A stretch of 64,000 nt of DNA, taken from the IMG/VR virus record IMGVR_UViG_3300045988_180980, one strand, 5' to 3'. This document shows positions 6,348 to 47,673 of the stretch, piece by piece. Under the pieces are notes generated by a model. That model worked only from the letters and a program-made list of their open reading frames with translations, searched no databases and was not told where the DNA came from. This DNA is from a virus. The first letter of the stretch is position 1; every line of letters starts with the position of its first letter. The position numbers and the translations under genes are program-made.

Positions 6348-6797
6348 ATGAAAAAAAAGAAAATCATGGATAAAAGAACTTTCACATTCCTGGGCGTGCG
6401 CTACAATGCGCCCGCCAGCCTGGACGAGAACATACGCGACTGGTTCGCCCACAACGCACCCACCGCCGCCTGCGCCCCCATCCCTGCCGATGCCCGCTTC
6501 AGCGCAGTGCATGCCGCACTCACGCCCTCCACCGCAGCCCCGCTCCCCGCCTGGTGCGCCTCCATCGACAGCACAGCCCGCAATCTGATATACTACTGTG
6601 TAGCCGTGACCGCCGCACCTGCAGAATATCCCCACGAAAACGGGAAAAATAAGAAAAACACTGTTTTTTTCGAAATAATGTGTGTTTTTCCTTGCAAGTT
6701 CCCCGAAAAGTACGTACCTTTGCAGTATCAAAAAAGAAAAGAAGTAACAACATTAAAACAGGCGGCAACTGTAATTCGGCACCCCGATTATGAATAA
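6348..6797 (+). CDS. hypothetical protein (Ala/Pro-rich centre)
   Basis: 149-aa ORF with an alternative ATG at 6366. Its 3' end runs through a promoter-like segment, and several shadow frames overlap it. Confidence 0.4.
   Translation: MKKKKIMDKRTFTFLGVRYNAPASLDENIRDWFAHNAPTAACAPIPADARFSAVHAALTPSTAAPLPAWCASIDSTARNLIYYCVAVTAAPAEYPHENGKNKKNTVFFEIMCVFPCKFPEKYVPLQYQKRKEVTTLKQAATVIRHPDYE
6715..6722 (+). promoter_or_regulatory. Bacteroidetes-type -7 promoter box (TACCTTTG)
   Basis: gtacgTACCTTTGcag, with ttg at about -33. Lies upstream of ATG 6790. Confidence 0.45.
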
Positions 6798-7404
6798 GAA
6801 CACAGAACATCTCAATGTATGGTTCAACGTTGGTCACGACGACCGTAGCTACACCACTCCTTGCAAGCGGTACATCGGCACCGTATCGGCACTCTCAGAC
6901 ACCTTCAAGGAAGATTCCATGGTGGACAAGACCAATGAAAACGGGGAGCCGCTTCCCGACAGTGAATGGAAGCTGCTTGACCGTGTGGGTAACATCATCC
7001 TGCAGGGACGAGAGGAGATAGAGGCGGAAACGGGCGTCATCGACTGGGGAAGCAGATACGACATCGACATCGTGCGCAACATCACTGAGTGCGACCCTGA
7101 AGAGTATCAGTGCATCATCGATGCGTACAATGATGGAGAATATGTGGACGACGACGTATTACGCTTTGCGTGTGAAGCCACATCGCAATGCCTGGTACTG
7201 GGCATCTCCTTCAACGAAGACGGATCCCTGGATGTGCGCACACAATACAGGACTACCACGTTTTTCCCTGGCGACTTCGCAGACGAGACCGACGCACGAG
7301 ATACGCTGAAGGCCGCCGGCTTCATCAAGAGTTCAATAGAGAGCATCGTAGATGCCGCGAGCGACGAGTGCTGGTTCGATTTCGATGAAGAGGACGAGGA
7401 CTGA
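6790..7404 (+). CDS. acidic hypothetical protein
   Basis: 204 aa, strongly Asp/Glu-rich, ending in DFDEEDED. Start overlaps the previous stop (ATGAATAA). Confidence 0.6.
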   Translation: MNKNTEHLNVWFNVGHDDRSYTTPCKRYIGTVSALSDTFKEDSMVDKTNENGEPLPDSEWKLLDRVGNIILQGREEIEAETGVIDWGSRYDIDIVRNITECDPEEYQCIIDAYNDGEYVDDDVLRFACEATSQCLVLGISFNEDGSLDVRTQYRTTTFFPGDFADETDARDTLKAAGFIKSSIESIVDAASDECWFDFDEEDED

Positions 7405-10874: not shown

Positions 10875-11092
10875 GCTCGTATCTACGATAGTAGAAATTA
10901 GCTCTTTTGTGAGCGTTTCAATCCGCAGGCCTAAGCCTGAAGTCAACGGAAGGATGATGTTTGTTTCAATTCCATAAAGGTACGATTCAATCTTCCAACC
11001 GAAGACAGGTGCAAAATTAAGAATTAAAATTATAGCAACCAAACAAAATCACAAAAATCTATCAGATTTCGGTGCAACAACCCTTTACGGAT

Positions 11093-45888: not shown

Positions 45889-46782
45889 ATGAACAAAGTA
45901 TTTTTTGCAAAAGAAGGTTTGACAGCCACATCTGCCAACCATGTTGCAAACATGGCTAAAGAGTATGCGCAGCGCATCTCGGCGCAGGCTGATACCTTGC
46001 GTCTTTACACCAAGAGCGCACGTCTGCTTGGTGATACACAGCCGTCGATTGTAGAAGCCCCTCTTGACACCCTTGATGCTATTCCCGATGTTATACGTCG
46101 TGTAGCTCAGTGCAATGCTCTTATCGGTTGGCTGCGTGAGGCTATCAGCGAACGCGAGAAAGGTTTGAAGTCCGTGCAAGACTGCAACTTCATGGTGTGG
46201 GCTGACGAGCACAATATTACTCTTCCTGAAAAGCCGGTTGCTCCTGACCTGGTTTCCGATATTGACAAGGTGGGCAATGAGATTTTGAATGTAAAGGATC
46301 GCAACCGCTATATTGAGTTGAAAACCAAGATGGCGGTATATGGTAAGTATATTCATCCCGACGGACTGTTGCCTATGGCCTTGAAGAGAGTGTCACACCG
46401 TCTGGCTAATCCTACGGAGATAGAAGGAGAAGGCCGCGATATGGTCGTGTTCTCTTATAATGTTGAACCCGGTACCATCGACCGACTGAACATGATCTTC
46501 TTTCAGCTTCAGGGCGAATATCGGGCATTGCAAGCTGAGTTTAATGGTATTGAGCATCGTTTCCGCGTGGAAGCCGAAAAGGAGTACAGCAAGCGATTGG
46601 CTGAATACAAGAAGAAGTATGCAGAACATCAAGAAAAGATAAACAATTTCGATACCGAAATGTCGAGATTACAGACGATGTTCGTTGAGTGGCAACAGGA
46701 AGAAATCAAAGAGATAACGTCTCTGCGCATTATCATCCCTAACGACCTCCAGGGAATATATGCGGAGGTCAACGGTTTGTAA
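45889..46782 (+). CDS. hypothetical protein
   Basis: ORF 45829 trimmed to ATG 45889 (MNKVFFAKEG...) downstream of the 11-bp repeats. Confidence 0.55.
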   Translation: MNKVFFAKEGLTATSANHVANMAKEYAQRISAQADTLRLYTKSARLLGDTQPSIVEAPLDTLDAIPDVIRRVAQCNALIGWLREAISEREKGLKSVQDCNFMVWADEHNITLPEKPVAPDLVSDIDKVGNEILNVKDRNRYIELKTKMAVYGKYIHPDGLLPMALKRVSHRLANPTEIEGEGRDMVVFSYNVEPGTIDRLNMIFFQLQGEYRALQAEFNGIEHRFRVEAEKEYSKRLAEYKKKYAEHQEKINNFDTEMSRLQTMFVEWQQEEIKEITSLRIIIPNDLQGIYAEVNGL

Positions 46783-46862
46783 AACATAAAATATAATACG
46801 AGGTGGGTAAGGTCAGACTGAAGGTCTTGTATCGTGAAACTGACCCTCACACTGATAGCATA

Positions 46863-46998
46863 CGGAGTTTTCTTTTTAGTGAATCATACGTTTTTCCGAA
46901 ACGTGTCTCACGAGGTCATAGGTTCGAATCCTATCTTTTCTTTTCGGAAGAAAAGTAGCTCAGCTGGTTAGAGCAAGTATTGCGCAAAAATCACTCCG
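46863..46998 (+). ncRNA. Circularly permuted tRNA-like RNA module (Y-RNA-like / permuted tRNA candidate)
   Basis: T-arm ATAGG-TTCGAAT-CCTAT at 46918-46934. 8-bp acceptor-like helix CTTTTCTT/AAGAAAAG closed by TTCGG at 46935-46955. D-arm GCTC-AGCTGGTTA-GAGC at 46958-46974. The flanks 46863-46889 and 46976-46998 can pair. Confidence 0.6.
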
Positions 46999-47017
46999 CA
47001 GTCAATTTCCCTATTCT

Positions 47018-47066
47018 GCTATCACTATCACCCGACTGCGGTGGCTATCACTATTGCCATCACTAT
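47018..47066 (+). repeat. Three ATCACTAT(C/T) repeats plus a flanking 8-bp inverted repeat
   Basis: ATCACTAT at 47021, 47047 and 47059. CCGCAGTC (46996-47003) and GACTGCGG (47034-47041). Lies upstream of the kinase ATG at 47116. Confidence 0.7.
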
Positions 47067-47115
47067 CACAGAAGTGCCGTATGAAGAATGTGGCTCACCT
47101 CGTTTTCTATGCTCG

Positions 47116-47673
47116 ATGAAACTAATTACGATTACAGGCCCGAGTGGTGCTGGGAAGGACACGGTGGCGCAGATGTTGTCGGGGATGACCGGCTGGCCTG
47201 TGCTTTGTTCTTATACCACACGCCCCATGCGCGAGGATGAGCAGGAGGGCAGAGAGCATCACTTCGTGGAGAAGTGCGATGTGCCCAAGGAGAAGATGCT
47301 GGCATACACGCGATATGGCGGCTTTGAGTACTGGACTACGGTGGACCAGATAGGCGATATAGCCATCTATGTGATCGATGAAGTGGGATTGGTGGACTTG
47401 AAGGAGCATCATCCCGAGATAGATGTCTATTCCCTCTACATCGGGAGTTCTGCAGCGTCACGCCTGGCCAGGGGTGTGAAACTCTCGCGGATCATCAGAG
47501 ATGCCTCGCGCCCAATGTTGGAAAACAGACTCCGTTACGGTGGCTATATCCGCAACGGATATGAGAAGACGATGGACAAACTGCGCATGGAAGTGGCGAT
47601 GTATGTATGCCGCCTGCCGTTCGTGCAGGACAAACTTTATCCGTCAGATGACGATCCCGGATTTTGCGATTGA
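47116..47673 (+). CDS. guanylate-kinase-like (deoxy)nucleoside monophosphate kinase
   Basis: ORF 47041 (GTG) trimmed to ATG 47116, which puts the P-loop ITGPSGAGKDT at the N-terminus. YTTRPMREDEQEGREHHFV is the guanylate kinase signature region. Confidence 0.75.
   Translation: MKLITITGPSGAGKDTVAQMLSGMTGWPVLCSYTTRPMREDEQEGREHHFVEKCDVPKEKMLAYTRYGGFEYWTTVDQIGDIAIYVIDEVGLVDLKEHHPEIDVYSLYIGSSAASRLARGVKLSRIIRDASRPMLENRLRYGGYIRNGYEKTMDKLRMEVAMYVCRLPFVQDKLYPSDDDPGFCD

Follow-up and report, generated by a model that had tools for sequence, protein, structure and literature searches.

A putative YrlA-type tRNA-shaped module carried by a larger structured RNA in phages of Prevotella and other gut Bacteroidales

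The stretch of phage DNA analysed here (64,000 nt, hereafter the window) contains a previously unclassified RNA, one shared by phages of Prevotella and other gut Bacteroidales. As predicted from its sequence, this is a structured RNA of ~306 nt (46798–47103/47106, + strand) filling an entire intergenic gap, and one of its domains (46913–46974) would be a tRNA-shaped domain of the YrlA type, with a T arm stacked on an acceptor-like hairpin, grafted into the larger molecule. We infer that the domain probably serves as a Ro-independent, non-chargeable tRNA mimic displayed on the phage RNA. Such a domain would present a tRNA elbow and body that cannot be aminoacylated, and would do so without a phage Ro60 protein. 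The RNA could thereby recruit, titrate or be modified by host factors recognising tRNA shape (TruB, Dus, RNase P, CCA-adding enzyme), or the domain could simply stabilise the RNA against nucleases.

The module, all of it on the + strand, opens with a variable-loop-like AGGUC (AGGTC in the DNA; 46913–46917) placed directly 5′ of a T arm, ATAGG-TTCGAAT-CCTAT (46918–46934), recognised from sequence, Rfam alignment and covariation. It continues with a perfect 8-bp loop-closed acceptor-like hairpin, CTTTTCTT-TTCGG-AAGAAAAG (46935–46955), a UA linker (TA in the DNA; 46956–46957) equivalent to tRNA positions 8–9, and a D arm, GCTC-AGCTGGTTA-GAGC, with G18 and G19 (46958–46974; sequence and Rfam alignment). 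The order of T arm, acceptor-like hairpin, TA and D arm had been proposed in a first-pass annotation of the window, and our analysis confirmed it at the same positions. The set of nucleotides needed to build the tRNA elbow is complete: those of the tertiary interactions U8:A14, G15:Y48, G18G19 and T54:A58 are all present, and G15 in the D loop can pair with the last C of AGGUC as the Levitt pair 15:48. (A/G)GGUC or GGUY precedes the T stem in all collected modules.

In relatives, pairing of the T and acceptor-like stems is maintained by compensatory changes. The T stem appears as ATTGG/CCAAT or GTAGG/CCTAC (two double-change pairs, 98.7% of alignment cells paired), and the acceptor-like stem is kept with two double changes while its loop sequence drifts freely. 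The UA linker and D arm are nearly invariant in the clade; in three other loci (L145, L223 and L224) the D stem reads GTTC/GAAC, again a compensatory change. Acceptor hairpins of other modules vary from 4 to 9 bp and are capped by GCAA, GGAA, TTGG or similar sequences; such caps are stable GNRA or UUCG-like loops. A loop-loop kiss between the hairpin loop upstream of the module (46891–46901) and the acceptor loop (46942–46952), which are complementary, was considered and rejected, given the free variation of the latter loop among relatives. Folding of the 151-nt core as a single sequence was not exceptional (z = −1.5).

No colinear cloverleaf can be drawn for the module, as the first-pass annotation had stated: ARAGORN predicted no tRNA or tmRNA gene in the 64-kb window, and the Rfam tRNA model scored 17.3 bits against a cut-off of 29. 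The Rfam search recommended at that stage gave a partial match to YrlA (RF02553); tRNA and tmRNA were below cut-off or absent. YrlA was the only Rfam model to match the module, scoring 32.5 bits against a gathering cut-off of 69; the match covered 46914–46974 and model positions 27–81 (E = 2.5e-5 in a 451-nt region), leaving unaligned the stem positions 1–26 and 82–114, which hold the Ro site. In the search of the whole window it was one of two matches at E ≤ 1 (E = 0.0036). Among phage modules in IMG/VR, six are followed directly by a Ro60 gene in the same orientation, and the four of these in the Rfam table (L070, L072, L123 and L132) scored 33–46 bits. The score obtained here is therefore typical of phage YrlA, and the Rfam cut-off of 69 bits is strict for phage members.

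In the literature, YrlA-type mimics are likened to circularly permuted tRNAs whose acceptor stem is closed by a loop (bioRxiv 10.1101/312249; PMC4201824), and the YrlA-like topology suggested previously is supported by YrlA being the sole Rfam match. The module shares with YrlA the order of V region, T arm, loop-closed acceptor-like stem, UA and D arm, the same conserved elbow nucleotides, the same GCUC/GAGC D stem, the lack of a free CCA end, a variable acceptor-stem length and a likely origin from tandem tRNAs. It differs in that a Ro-binding stem closes the ~115-nt YrlA RNA, whereas here that stem does not align and the module lies inside a ~306-nt RNA with domains of its own; in addition, its T stem departs from the near-invariant T stem of YrlA, and sister copies carry anticodon arms, which YrlA lacks. 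The tRNA-like domains of YrlA are modified by TruB and DusA (PMC4201824).

Those YrlA genes that have been described share a strand with Ro and are no more than 4 kb away from it (PMC4201824), whereas no Ro60 gene is found near the module or in the phage genome. A Pfam search of all ORFs within at least 4 kb of the module detected no Ro/TROVE domain, and a Ro HMM that recovers Ro beside other phage modules found nothing in the window, in L001–L012 or in L133–L317. Ro, tRNA and tmRNA genes were absent from the window, from ~170 syntenic loci and from the full circle of a relative (contig 183268), which bears out the first-pass observation that the window lacks a TROVE gene and, via this relative, extends it to the rest of the genome. 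The Ro-binding motif GNCGAAN0-1G, which YrlA carries near its 5′ end in a stem made by the RNA ends, was absent from 46700–47100, and the six Ro-adjacent phage modules also lack it in its strict form.

Some Bacteroidales encode Ro60 orthologues, and the RNA could be a canonical YrlA that uses a host-encoded Ro60/Rsr, tethering Prevotella Rsr to PNPase or an RNA-repair enzyme as in RYPER. The exclusive Rfam match, with a score equal to those of Ro-adjacent phage modules, would fit such an arrangement, as would the ability of Ro60 of Thermus phage phiLo, with phage Y-like RNAs, to engage host PNPase (PMC12135203). We nevertheless consider it improbable given that Ro is missing from the phage genome and from the ~170 related loci, that the alignment to the Rfam model is confined to its tRNA-like core, that the RNA has roughly three times the length of YrlA and its own conserved domains, and that the GNCGAAN0-1G motif is absent, the last being a weak test as the six Ro-adjacent modules lack it too.

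The scaffold around the module is closed by two helices. The 5′ strand of the outer helix, ACGAGGTGGGT (46798–46808, +), pairs with 47093–47103, where the 3′ strand GCTCACCTCGT is followed by a U tract (47093–47106, +) that stops 10 nt before the kinase ATG at 47116. The RNA probably ends in this segment, unless the segment is an attenuator; most loci have a T-run behind the outer helix, and both RNA ends given here were deduced from the helices and the U tract only. Four pairs of the outer helix show double compensatory changes within the clade. Distant loci, aligned by eye or by an anchored search (a procedure which itself selects for complementarity), have other complementary sequences in its place: AAAAGACGAGT/GCTCGTCTTTT, AGGCGTGGGT/GCTCACGCCT, TGTGCGGGT/GCCCGCACA, GAGACACAGGT/GCCTGTGTCTT and ACGGCAACGGGT/GCCCGTTGCCGT. 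In a shuffle control on 19 loci, the observed score of this helix was reached by 0–17 of 100 shuffles.

Inside the outer helix lies a 5′ domain (46811–46845, +), in which a helix GGTCAG/CTGACC surrounds ACUGAA, a mini-hairpin with a CUUG-type loop, and GUGAAAC. The motif is seen 30–70 nt past the stop codon of the preceding 297-aa gene in many relatives, its helix being formed by at least 10 different complementary sequences, and it matched no Rfam family. Its reading as a hammerhead (CUGA...GAAAC) was rejected: the NGA of the CUGANGA core is absent, there are only two helices, and no Rfam ribozyme matched. An RNase P-like reading of ACAGAA...GGCUCA was likewise discarded, as these sequences are not conserved in L138 and L142.

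The second closing helix, CATACGG (46859–46865, +) with CCGTATG (47077–47083, +), was recovered by RNAalifold with 99% of cells paired, and homologues of 7–16 bp with other sequences occur in L146 (CTGATAG/CTATCAG), L145, L167, L220, L225 and L232/235/239. Downstream of the module, a 3′ hairpin CCGCAGTC ... GACTGCGG with a 30-nt loop (46996–47041, +; inverted repeat I9) was paired in 100% of cells, with double changes from G-C to A-U and from U-A to C-G. It overlaps a pyrimidine-rich tract of 6-nt periodicity in two blocks (47018–47070, +; repeat families D1 and D2), reading GCTATC ACTATC ... GCTATC ACTATT GCCATC ACTATC; all relatives read have an equivalent tract (GCTCTT, GCTTAC, GTTCTT, GCTATT) at this position. 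A reading of these hexamers as coding, either for an N-terminal extension or for a peptide on the minus strand, was set aside, the blocks being in different frames and inside covarying helices. The pairing partner of a conserved AGUGA (46878–46882) is ambiguous, with several UCAC copies possible. Outside the modules, the scaffold matched no Rfam 15 family, GOLLD, ROOL, RNase P and ribozymes included, with thresholds of E ≤ 1 for the window and E ≤ 0.1 for 11 related loci; the partial matches in these searches were to YrlA and tRNA only, on the modules.

This architecture replaces the closing helix of about 18 bp drawn previously between 46863–46889 and 46976–46998, which found no support. Its best segment, CGGAGT/ACTCCG (46863–46868/46993–46998), was paired in 81.7% of cells but breaks in more divergent relatives, and its covariation was not significant, with 69 of 500 shuffles reaching the observed value. 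Its nucleotides overlap two better-supported helices (CATACGG/CCGTATG and the CCGCAGTC/GACTGCGG hairpin), and the lengths of the T-run and A-run included in the earlier helix vary independently in relatives. A discrete RNA of ~136 nt closed in that way is not upheld; the module is instead a domain of the ~306-nt RNA with its different closing helices.

The whole gap is kept in syntenic loci in which the neighbouring protein is 57–97% identical. A 66-pair model of the RNA applied to 15 sequences gave 94.6% paired cells, compared with 35–54% in slid controls. Fourteen pairs carried double changes, and the covariation score of 0.203, which within the clade rests mostly on two to three lineages, compared with 0.132 in shuffles and was reached by none of 500. 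Conserved G-U pairs indicate that the RNA is read from the + strand.

The gap of ~330 bp upstream of the nucleotide-metabolism cluster, noted in the first pass, was confirmed in the window sequence as 46783 to 47115. It is flanked by the gene of the 297-aa protein and by a nucleotide-metabolism operon (dNMP/guanylate kinase, ThyX, MazG), the kinase of which most likely starts at ATG 47116. An earlier ATG at 47081 lies inside the CCGTATG strand and is probably not a start codon. No + strand promoter was found in a sigma-70 scan, which does not model Bacteroidales promoters. The 297-aa protein has no Pfam or PHROG family and no sequence relative in PDB, and its AlphaFold model (pLDDT 80.6) had no significant Foldseek match; it therefore says nothing about RNA binding. 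The phage is ~90 kb, and its closest genomic relative lies on a contig from a Prevotella MAG. Used as nucleotide queries against INPHARED, neither the element nor the 6 kb surrounding it returned a match, and a protein search for known phages with the putative capsid was likewise negative.

The position of the element also bears on whether it acts in cis, either as a replication origin, with hexamer iterons bound by the 297-aa protein, or as a terminator, attenuator or processing site between the operons for replication and nucleotide metabolism, in which the tRNA fold would be an RNase P/Z signal or a passenger. The element always comes straight after the 297-aa gene, itself preceded by a primase-like gene. 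No other feature is retained as widely in the family as the hexamer repeats, and both they and the location beside replication genes would fit a DNA-level element. The U tract after the outer helix, so close to the kinase start, and the second closing helix, which buries an ATG taken by gene callers as the kinase start in relatives, also speak for a cis role. On the other hand, compensatory changes with conserved G-U pairs reflect selection on a folded + strand RNA, downstream genes differ in L145 and L146 while the RNA remains, cumulative GC skew does not turn at the site, and acceptor hairpins of 4–9 bp are not uniform RNase P substrates. We regard a cis-acting element as unlikely and keep the tRNA mimic as the preferred reading.

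The predicted scaffold is common to many Bacteroidales phages and prophages and carries no, one or two T-loop modules, which marks the module as an accessory, exchangeable domain. Sister lineages differ from the window also in retaining anticodon arms (GCU, CAA, UUG, CUA). When sister modules were rejoined in silico at the variable loop, those of L138, L145, L146, L223 and L224 un-permuted to clean tRNAs according to ARAGORN, with anticodons cta, ttg, caa and gct. The window module gave a 94-nt ARAGORN 'tRNA' if the upstream hairpin was set as its anticodon arm, this construct being chosen by the analyst. Direct application of ARAGORN to L145 returned a 'tRNA-Pyl(cta)', which was rejected as a poor cloverleaf with a borrowed, false T arm.

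In the window, the D arm is followed by a linker, AAGTATTGCGCAAAAATCACT (46975–46995, +), that holds TTGCGC as the remnant of an anticodon-like arm. Alignments A2, A4 and A5 show that the arm was lost by a deletion of ~10–12 nt, which accounts for the lack of an arm after the D arm: L138/L141 have ACAAT-TTGCTAA-ATTGT at this position and L159 has ACACA-TTGCTAA-TGTGT, while the 3′ half is missing in the window clade and in L135. Upstream of the T arm, a small hairpin assigned in the first pass to the variable-arm position (46888–46904) proved real but longer, ATACGTTTT-TCC-GAAACGTGT (46886–46906, +; fold and relatives). It is kept by different sequences in L007, L135, L138 and L142/L159, and may be an anticodon-arm remnant, judging from a loop that can be read as UUUCCGA.

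The modules appear to derive from tandem tRNA genes in which neighbouring acceptor strands re-paired, one tRNA contributing the T arm and the following one the D arm; the sister lineages have kept the anticodon arm, and the lineage of the window has deleted it. Chained modules in L145, L223 and L224 are compatible with this model, which is given in bioRxiv 10.1101/312249. The first-pass annotation had allowed that the permuted order was a rearrangement scar, with an ordinary colinear tRNA at the site in related genomes. Colinear tRNAs do occur near the site in distant relatives (~30–37% identity in the neighbouring protein), but the permuted arrangement is present, with compensatory changes, across relatives at 31–97% identity, and is therefore no private scar. 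The same colinear tRNAs, the lost anticodon-like arm and the resemblance of chained modules to rewired tRNA arrays could be taken as signs that two neighbouring tRNA genes are decaying into a functionless relic; moreover, tRNAs that lie side by side and share an acceptor stem can produce a similar pattern (L128 was a false positive of this kind). Such a relic is very improbable in our view, considering the double substitutions that keep the T and acceptor-like stems paired while the acceptor loop drifts, the intact tertiary-interaction nucleotides, the stable GNRA/UUCG-like caps, and the persistence of the arrangement over this range of identity.

Permuted tRNA genes are known from Cyanidioschyzon merolae, some green algae and Thermofilum pendens, where they are processed via a circular intermediate at a bulge-helix-bulge motif into normal, chargeable tRNAs with 7-bp acceptors and anticodon arms; no bulge-helix-bulge motif is known from bacteria. 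The module is like them in placing the 3′ half before the 5′ half and joining the acceptor strands by a short loop, but has no anticodon arm after the D arm and varies in acceptor length, and its stable capping loops speak for a hairpin that stays closed. A functional permuted tRNA is unlikely here because no anticodon arm follows the D arm, there is no CCA, the cap is 5 nt long, and acceptors range from 4 to 9 bp. Least credible of all is a decoding permuted or two-piece tRNA whose acceptor is opened by RNase P, trimmed and given CCA while the scaffold holds the pieces together, as in two-piece tmRNA. YrlA of M. smegmatis does undergo RNase P cleavage followed by CCA addition (PMC4201824), and modules with 7-bp acceptors and intact anticodon loops exist (CUA in L145, UUG in L224). 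In the window, however, the anticodon arm is missing from its tRNA position and the acceptor hairpin has 8–9 bp and a 5-nt loop without CCA; more generally, acceptors of 4–9 bp are incompatible with conserved charging, and ARAGORN detected neither a permuted tmRNA nor a tag reading frame.

Two-piece tmRNA resembles the RNA in its permuted gene order, with the 5′ acceptor strand coming after the T arm and the 3′ acceptor strand, in its long-range helices and in its length of ~300 nt. It differs in that here no CCA follows the acceptor strand, there is no tag frame ending in a stop (reading of the sequence after the D arm showed no such short frame) and no recognisable pseudoknot series, and ARAGORN and Rfam find no tmRNA. 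GOLLD and ROOL are likewise large structured phage or prophage RNAs with tRNA sequences and a variable region, but show no match in sequence or structure; the present RNA is smaller, with a core made of an ACUGA/GAAAC hairpin and hexamer repeats. At the L128 locus, a GOLLD RNA adjoins tRNAs. A literature search found no description of the RNA, parts of which may be listed anonymously in catalogues of candidate phage RNAs (PMC10690425).

Until now, YrlA-type mimics have been defined through their partnership with Ro60. A domain of this kind grafted elsewhere without a Ro gene suggests that the tRNA-shaped module is functional in its own right and movable between RNAs, and the natural series of zero to two modules, with or without anticodon arms and with acceptors of 4–9 bp, makes the question testable while illustrating the proposed tRNA-dimer origin of such mimics. 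More tentatively, the family could constitute a class of Bacteroidales-phage non-coding RNAs carrying exchangeable non-chargeable tRNA bodies as decoys or sponges without Ro60, some of them intermediates in the birth of Y RNAs; we hold this to be possible rather than likely. Candidates for decoying under that proposal are tRNA-directed enzymes of the host such as anticodon nucleases, modification enzymes and RNase P. Intact anticodon loops, including the amber-suppressor-type CUA, are present in some modules of the family.

The RNA also has consequences for annotation, as spurious ORFs and wrong start codons are placed on it, and the Rfam YrlA cut-off misses phage members located beside Ro. 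In the window, a GTG at 47041 is such a gene-caller start on the RNA. A spurious gene call covers the homologous RNA of L142 (4941–5261), and the small CDSs annotated downstream of the homologous gene in PQ006092 are probably spurious calls on the RNA as well.

The window carries a conserved, covarying RNA structure of ~306 nt on the + strand (46798–47103, hereafter the scaffold), in which a tRNA-elbow module is embedded, its presence or absence being modular, while genes for Ro, tRNA and tmRNA are absent. With coordinates recomputed, sequence reading gave AGGTC (46913–46917), a T arm ATAGG-TTCGAAT-CCTAT (46918–46934), a perfect 8-bp hairpin CTTTTCTT-TTCGG-AAGAAAAG (46935–46955), TA (46956–46957) and a D arm GCTC-AGCTGGTTA-GAGC (46958–46974); the permuted order claimed in the first-pass annotation, with the 3′ half of a tRNA ahead of its 5′ half, therefore reads as described there. 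The module supplies U8, A9, A14, G15, G18, G19, G46, C48, T54, C56 and A58, which in tRNA numbering make up the complete set that builds a tRNA elbow. No tRNA or tmRNA was found in the 64-kb window by ARAGORN, and Rfam gave no match at gathering thresholds. Under E-value reporting, the Rfam model of YrlA (Y RNA-like A, RF02553), a Ro60-partnered tRNA mimic, matched 46914–46974 with 32.5 bits vs a cut-off of 69 (E = 2.5e-5 over a 451-nt region, 0.0036 over the whole window), one of two Rfam matches at E ≤ 1 in the whole window. The alignment was limited to model positions 27–81, which cover the T and D arms and the acceptor-like stem between them. The Rfam tRNA model scored 17.3 bits on the module, under its cut-off of 29. 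Complementarity was also seen between the loop of an upstream hairpin (46891–46901, UUUUUCCGAAA) and the loop region of the acceptor-like hairpin (46942–46952, UUUCGGAAGAA); since relatives do not conserve this pairing, it was rejected as probably a coincidence of two TTCG/CGAA-type loops.

The YrlA score was calibrated on phage loci fetched from IMG/VR or reference contigs (L-numbers). A pattern scan of IMG/VR (T loop, 17–35 nt, D arm, retained when the spacer formed a flush hairpin) returned a majority of ordinary tRNA arrays and ~12 non-tRNA modules like that of the window, within long helices. The match in L128 consisted of two neighbouring tRNAs with an identical acceptor stem beside a GOLLD RNA, which is full-length (L128:5852–6267, 207 bits) and immediately precedes the tRNA cluster. 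Ro genes were searched for with the human Ro60 sequence, which matched TROVE and vWA_Ro60 in a Pfam check, and with an HMM combining it with the phage Ro proteins that it detected. This HMM placed a Ro60 gene directly downstream of a module, on the same strand, in six IMG/VR contigs (RNAs at L070:3253–3417, L100:5735–5568(-), L132:5716–5553(-), L072:1247–1087(-), L123:8379–8215(-) and L129:7039–6872(-)), which is the canonical YrlA arrangement (PMC4201824). All six RNAs fell under the Rfam YrlA gathering score: of the five scored on RF02553, L070, L072, L123 and L132 gave just 33–46 bits, and L100 had no match at E ≤ 0.01. Because Ro-adjacent modules score alike, 32.5 bits is a typical value for a genuine phage YrlA-type module, and the Rfam cut-off is strict. 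The analogy with YrlA drawn in the first-pass annotation is in line with this, and the module is of a kind already known, a YrlA-type tRNA mimic. In L100, a tRNA array lies just beyond the Ro gene. Further YrlA-type modules in long closing helices were observed at L051:1716–1884, L087:4235–4403, L095:8851–9016 and L105:6302–6473 and 6750–6917; the fetched DNA of these four loci also holds tRNA genes (and, at L095:4738–5051, a tmRNA gene of 112 bits) and no Ro gene, and they may represent a second Ro-unlinked context, distinct from the scaffold.

The lack of a Ro gene, noted earlier for the window, extends to the whole phage. The Ro HMM found nothing in the window, its close relatives (L001–L012) or the syntenic loci L135–L227, and a Pfam search of every ORF in at least 4 kb around the element returned guanylate kinase, ThyX, MazG, a primase-like and a tail protein, and nothing else. 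A genome walk along a relative, IMG/VR contig 3300045988_183268 (95% identity in the last window gene), rejoined the window at ~6.3 kb, giving a circle of ~90 kb, and the part beyond the window contained no Ro HMM match, tRNA or tmRNA. A rival explanation, under which the RNA uses a host Ro, would agree with the YrlA-type score; 46700–47100 lacks the strict Ro-binding motif GNCGAAN0-1G, a weak test that carries little weight because the motif is also missing upstream of the six Ro-adjacent modules. Outside the window, contig 183268 encodes a 485-aa reverse transcriptase (L309:18177–19631, Pfam RVT_1, E = 5.8e-10) with a weak Lcl_C-like N-terminal match, adjoining a 2238-aa ORF; this locus may be a diversity-generating retroelement. 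A weak match to the CRISPR-DR2 direct-repeat model occurs at window 10963–10992 (29.4 bits vs a cut-off of 37, E = 0.19).

The gene upstream of the element (45829/45889–46782) encodes ~297 aa and has hundreds of homologues; the protein matched no Pfam or PHROG family, and its model is long and helical, with no informative structural neighbour found. Homologous loci were grouped by identity of this protein: 92–97% in L001–L012, 77% in L135, 65% in L138–141, 57% in L142–144, L159–160 and L221, 53% in L146, 47% in L145 and 30–40% in others. A gap of 300–500 nt follows the gene in every fetched locus, and in the 57–97% set the whole gap is alignable, beyond the tRNA-like part. The structure modelled by RNAalifold and inspection comprises an outer helix (46798–46808/47093–47103) with a U tract on its 3′ side; a 5′ domain (46811–46845) in which the helix GGTCAG/CTGACC encloses ACUGAA, a mini-hairpin and GUGAAAC; a second closing helix CATACGG/CCGTATG (46859–46865/47077–47083); the upstream hairpin (46886–46906); the T, acceptor-like and D arms (46918–46974); a 3′ hairpin (46996–47003/47034–47041); and a tract of 6-nt periodicity (47018–47070).

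Covariation was tested on an alignment of 15 distinct sequences (A5) with a 66-pair model. Paired cells amounted to 94.6%, vs 35–54% with slid partners, 14 pairs changed on both sides, and the covariation score was 0.203 vs 0.132 ± 0.007 in shuffles, none of 500 reaching the observed value. Double changes fell in the outer helix (four pairs), in the 3′ hairpin, T stem, acceptor-like stem and upstream hairpin (two each, the last of these having been proposed in the first-pass annotation) and in each of two 5′-domain helices (one). Conserved G-U pairs, such as the innermost U-G of the outer helix (15/15 sequences), indicate that the scaffold is an RNA read from the + strand. The ~18-bp closing helix drawn earlier (46863–46889/46976–46998) fared differently: CGGAGT/ACTCCG is 81.7% paired, breaks in L135-, L138- and L142-type sequences and shows no significant covariation (the observed value was reached by 69 of 500 shuffles); the second closing helix uses the same CGG, and the 3′ hairpin the same CCG; and the T-run and A-run of the drawn helix vary independently in length. 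Because this helix fails, the RNA is taken to be ~306 nt and not ~136 nt long. Nine UCAC copies occur in the scaffold RNA, and candidate pairing partners of a conserved AGUGA (46878–46882) include 46908–46911, 46990–46993 and the repeat units. A sigma-70 scan, which does not model Bacteroidales promoters, found no + strand promoter.

The scaffold recurs in distant phages. The 5′ domain reappears 30–70 nt past the stop codon of the 297-aa gene, its helix being built from at least 10 different complementary sequences (e.g. ACCCAGG/CCTGGGT, ATGTCGG/CCGACAT, GCCGCAG/CTGCGGC, ACAAAAG/CTTTTGT, AGCCGTG/CACGGCT). Its motif, a 6–8-bp helix with many compensatory variants around (G/A)ACUGA, a 2–3-bp hairpin, whose loop is often CUUG, and GAAAC, was located at window 46811–46845, L162:3390–3424, L163:3431–3464, L180:3392–3424, L204:3395–3429 and L223:3677–3712, among others. 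No Rfam family matched the ACUGA/GAAAC motif; a hammerhead core was considered and rejected, the likeness being superficial and essential positions missing. The outer helix, set against a conserved (G)GU-AA junction and with a T-run after it, was found with unrelated complementary sequences in ~20 distinct loci, and the automated anchored search found none in L146, L180, L204 and L208. At the homologous position, L145, L167, L220, L225 and L232/235/239 have a second closing helix of 7–16 bp, as does L146, where it was identified by eye. Anchored searches favour complementarity by design, so the weight of the distant helices lies in their constant position and in shuffle controls (0–17 of 100 shuffles per locus reached the observed outer-helix score), not in percentage paired. 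Searches of the window and of eleven related loci gave no match of the scaffold to any Rfam 15 family.

A scan of reference genomes traced the 297-aa gene family to one complete Muribaculaceae chromosome and to MAG contigs from Prevotella, Muribaculaceae, Bacteroides and related taxa, with the nearest homologue (95%) on a Prevotella sp. MAG contig; host assignment from MAG-binned phage contigs is suggestive, not proof. Upstream of the gene in a distant relative, L225:2192–2262 matched the RAGATH-1 hammerhead ribozyme (55.2 bits vs a cut-off of 56.3).

Across the family, nothing in the gap is conserved more widely than the pyrimidine-rich hexamer tract at 47018–47070, of strict 6-nt periodicity in two blocks, one within the 3′-hairpin loop and the other beyond that hairpin. 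The repeated unit reads GCTATC/ACTATC in the window; relatives have GCTCTT, GCTTAC, GTTCTT or GCTATT instead, with equivalent tracts in L138, L145, L146, L163, L162, L180, L204, L207 and L220. The tract could be a multimeric protein-binding site on RNA, or DNA iterons. A rival explanation, that the element is a cis-acting origin, attenuator or processing element, would accommodate iterons as well as the outer helix with its U tract; the G-U pairs speak for RNA.

The tRNA-like module is an optional, exchangeable insert of the scaffold. Scaffolds lack a T loop in some loci (274–301 nt, e.g. L162, L167, L185, L232, L235, L239), have one in the window clade, L135, L138 and L159, and have two in L145, L223, L224, L285 and L292 (~400–440 nt). 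By sequence reading, type A modules, to which that of the window belongs, have a UA linker and a D arm G(C/U)UC-AGCUGGUUA-GA(G/A)C, whereas in type B modules the linker is UG and the D arm, GCG-GAA(U/G)UGG(U/C)AGA-CGC, is class-II and Leu-like, immediately followed by an anticodon arm with loop CUCUAAA (CUA) in L145, UUCAAAA (CAA) in L146 and UUUUGGU (UUG) in L223 and L224. Among type A modules, a 5-bp stem with loop UUGCUAA (GCU) comes next in L138/L141 and L159, the loop is UUGCUG in L142/L160, and a deletion in L135 and the window clade has removed the arm's 3′ half, leaving AAGTA-TTGCGC. The module at L145:3258–3345 combines a loop-closed acceptor hairpin of 7 bp with a Leu-like D arm and a CUA loop of amber-suppressor type; TAG recoding, known from gut Bacteroidales phages, makes it of possible interest.

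Rejoined in silico at the variable loop, the sister modules were called by default ARAGORN as tRNAs (cta, ttg, ttg, caa, gct), which would suit a rival explanation as a two-piece decoding tRNA; in genomic order they gave no ARAGORN tRNA except poor calls splicing parts of adjacent modules. The acceptor-like hairpins have 4–9 bp and GCAA, GGAA, TTGG, TCATG, CCGTCA or TTCGG caps, and CCA is absent from all those read, which argues against aminoacylation as the conserved function. In two-module chains the order is T1, hairpin1, D1, anticodon arm 1, linker, T2, hairpin2, D2; a colinear D1-to-T2 reading scores 32–37 bits on the Rfam tRNA model, yet its acceptor strands are unpaired. Such a chain is what would be expected if, as Sim and Wolin proposed (cited in bioRxiv 10.1101/312249), dimeric tRNA transcripts gave rise to YrlA, its T arm and D arm coming from successive tRNAs. 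A neutral tRNA relic is a further rival explanation, with which the loss of the anticodon-like arm in the window clade would agree; set against it are the double changes in the T and acceptor-like stems. The first-pass annotation had held that, if related genomes had an ordinary colinear tRNA in this place, the arrangement would be a rearrangement scar. Such tRNAs do occur, in distant relatives only (e.g. L173, L192, L204, L205, L217, L220, L227) and after the repeat tract, and the conservation of the permuted module is unaffected.

The reading we favour is that of a tRNA mimic. The scaffold RNA would be a stable transcript that may form the structured 3′ end of a replication-gene operon, the outer helix and U tract marking that end, and the module would present a tRNA-shaped, unchargeable surface. 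By analogy with YrlA, host enzymes reading tRNA shape would recognise it: TruB and DusA modify YrlA, and RNase P cuts one member, to which CCA is then added (PMC4201824), while Wang et al. expect the YrlA effector to be an elbow-binding protein. In lineages bearing anticodon loops, the RNA could also titrate anticodon-directed enzymes. Structural identity and a tRNA-mimic role, taken jointly, appear somewhat better than an even bet to us, and any specific partner far less probable. What is new is the occurrence of the module without any Ro gene, its embedding in a conserved scaffold RNA unmatched by any Rfam 15 model, and the series of sister modules still with anticodon arms; that these constitute a new phage RNA class displaying exchangeable tRNA bodies as decoys is a tentative and rather doubtful proposition.

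Several predicted ORFs and start codons lie on the structured RNA: a GTG-start extension of the downstream kinase (window 47041–47115), a 12-codon ORF from ATG 47081 (47081–47119), a called 106-aa gene (L142:4941–5261), kinase starts called at a buried ATG in L135 and L138, and small hypothetical CDSs at the equivalent place, by position, in L308 (PQ006092; 6918–7094 and 7178–7612). These are probably annotation artefacts, and the kinase most likely starts at 47116.
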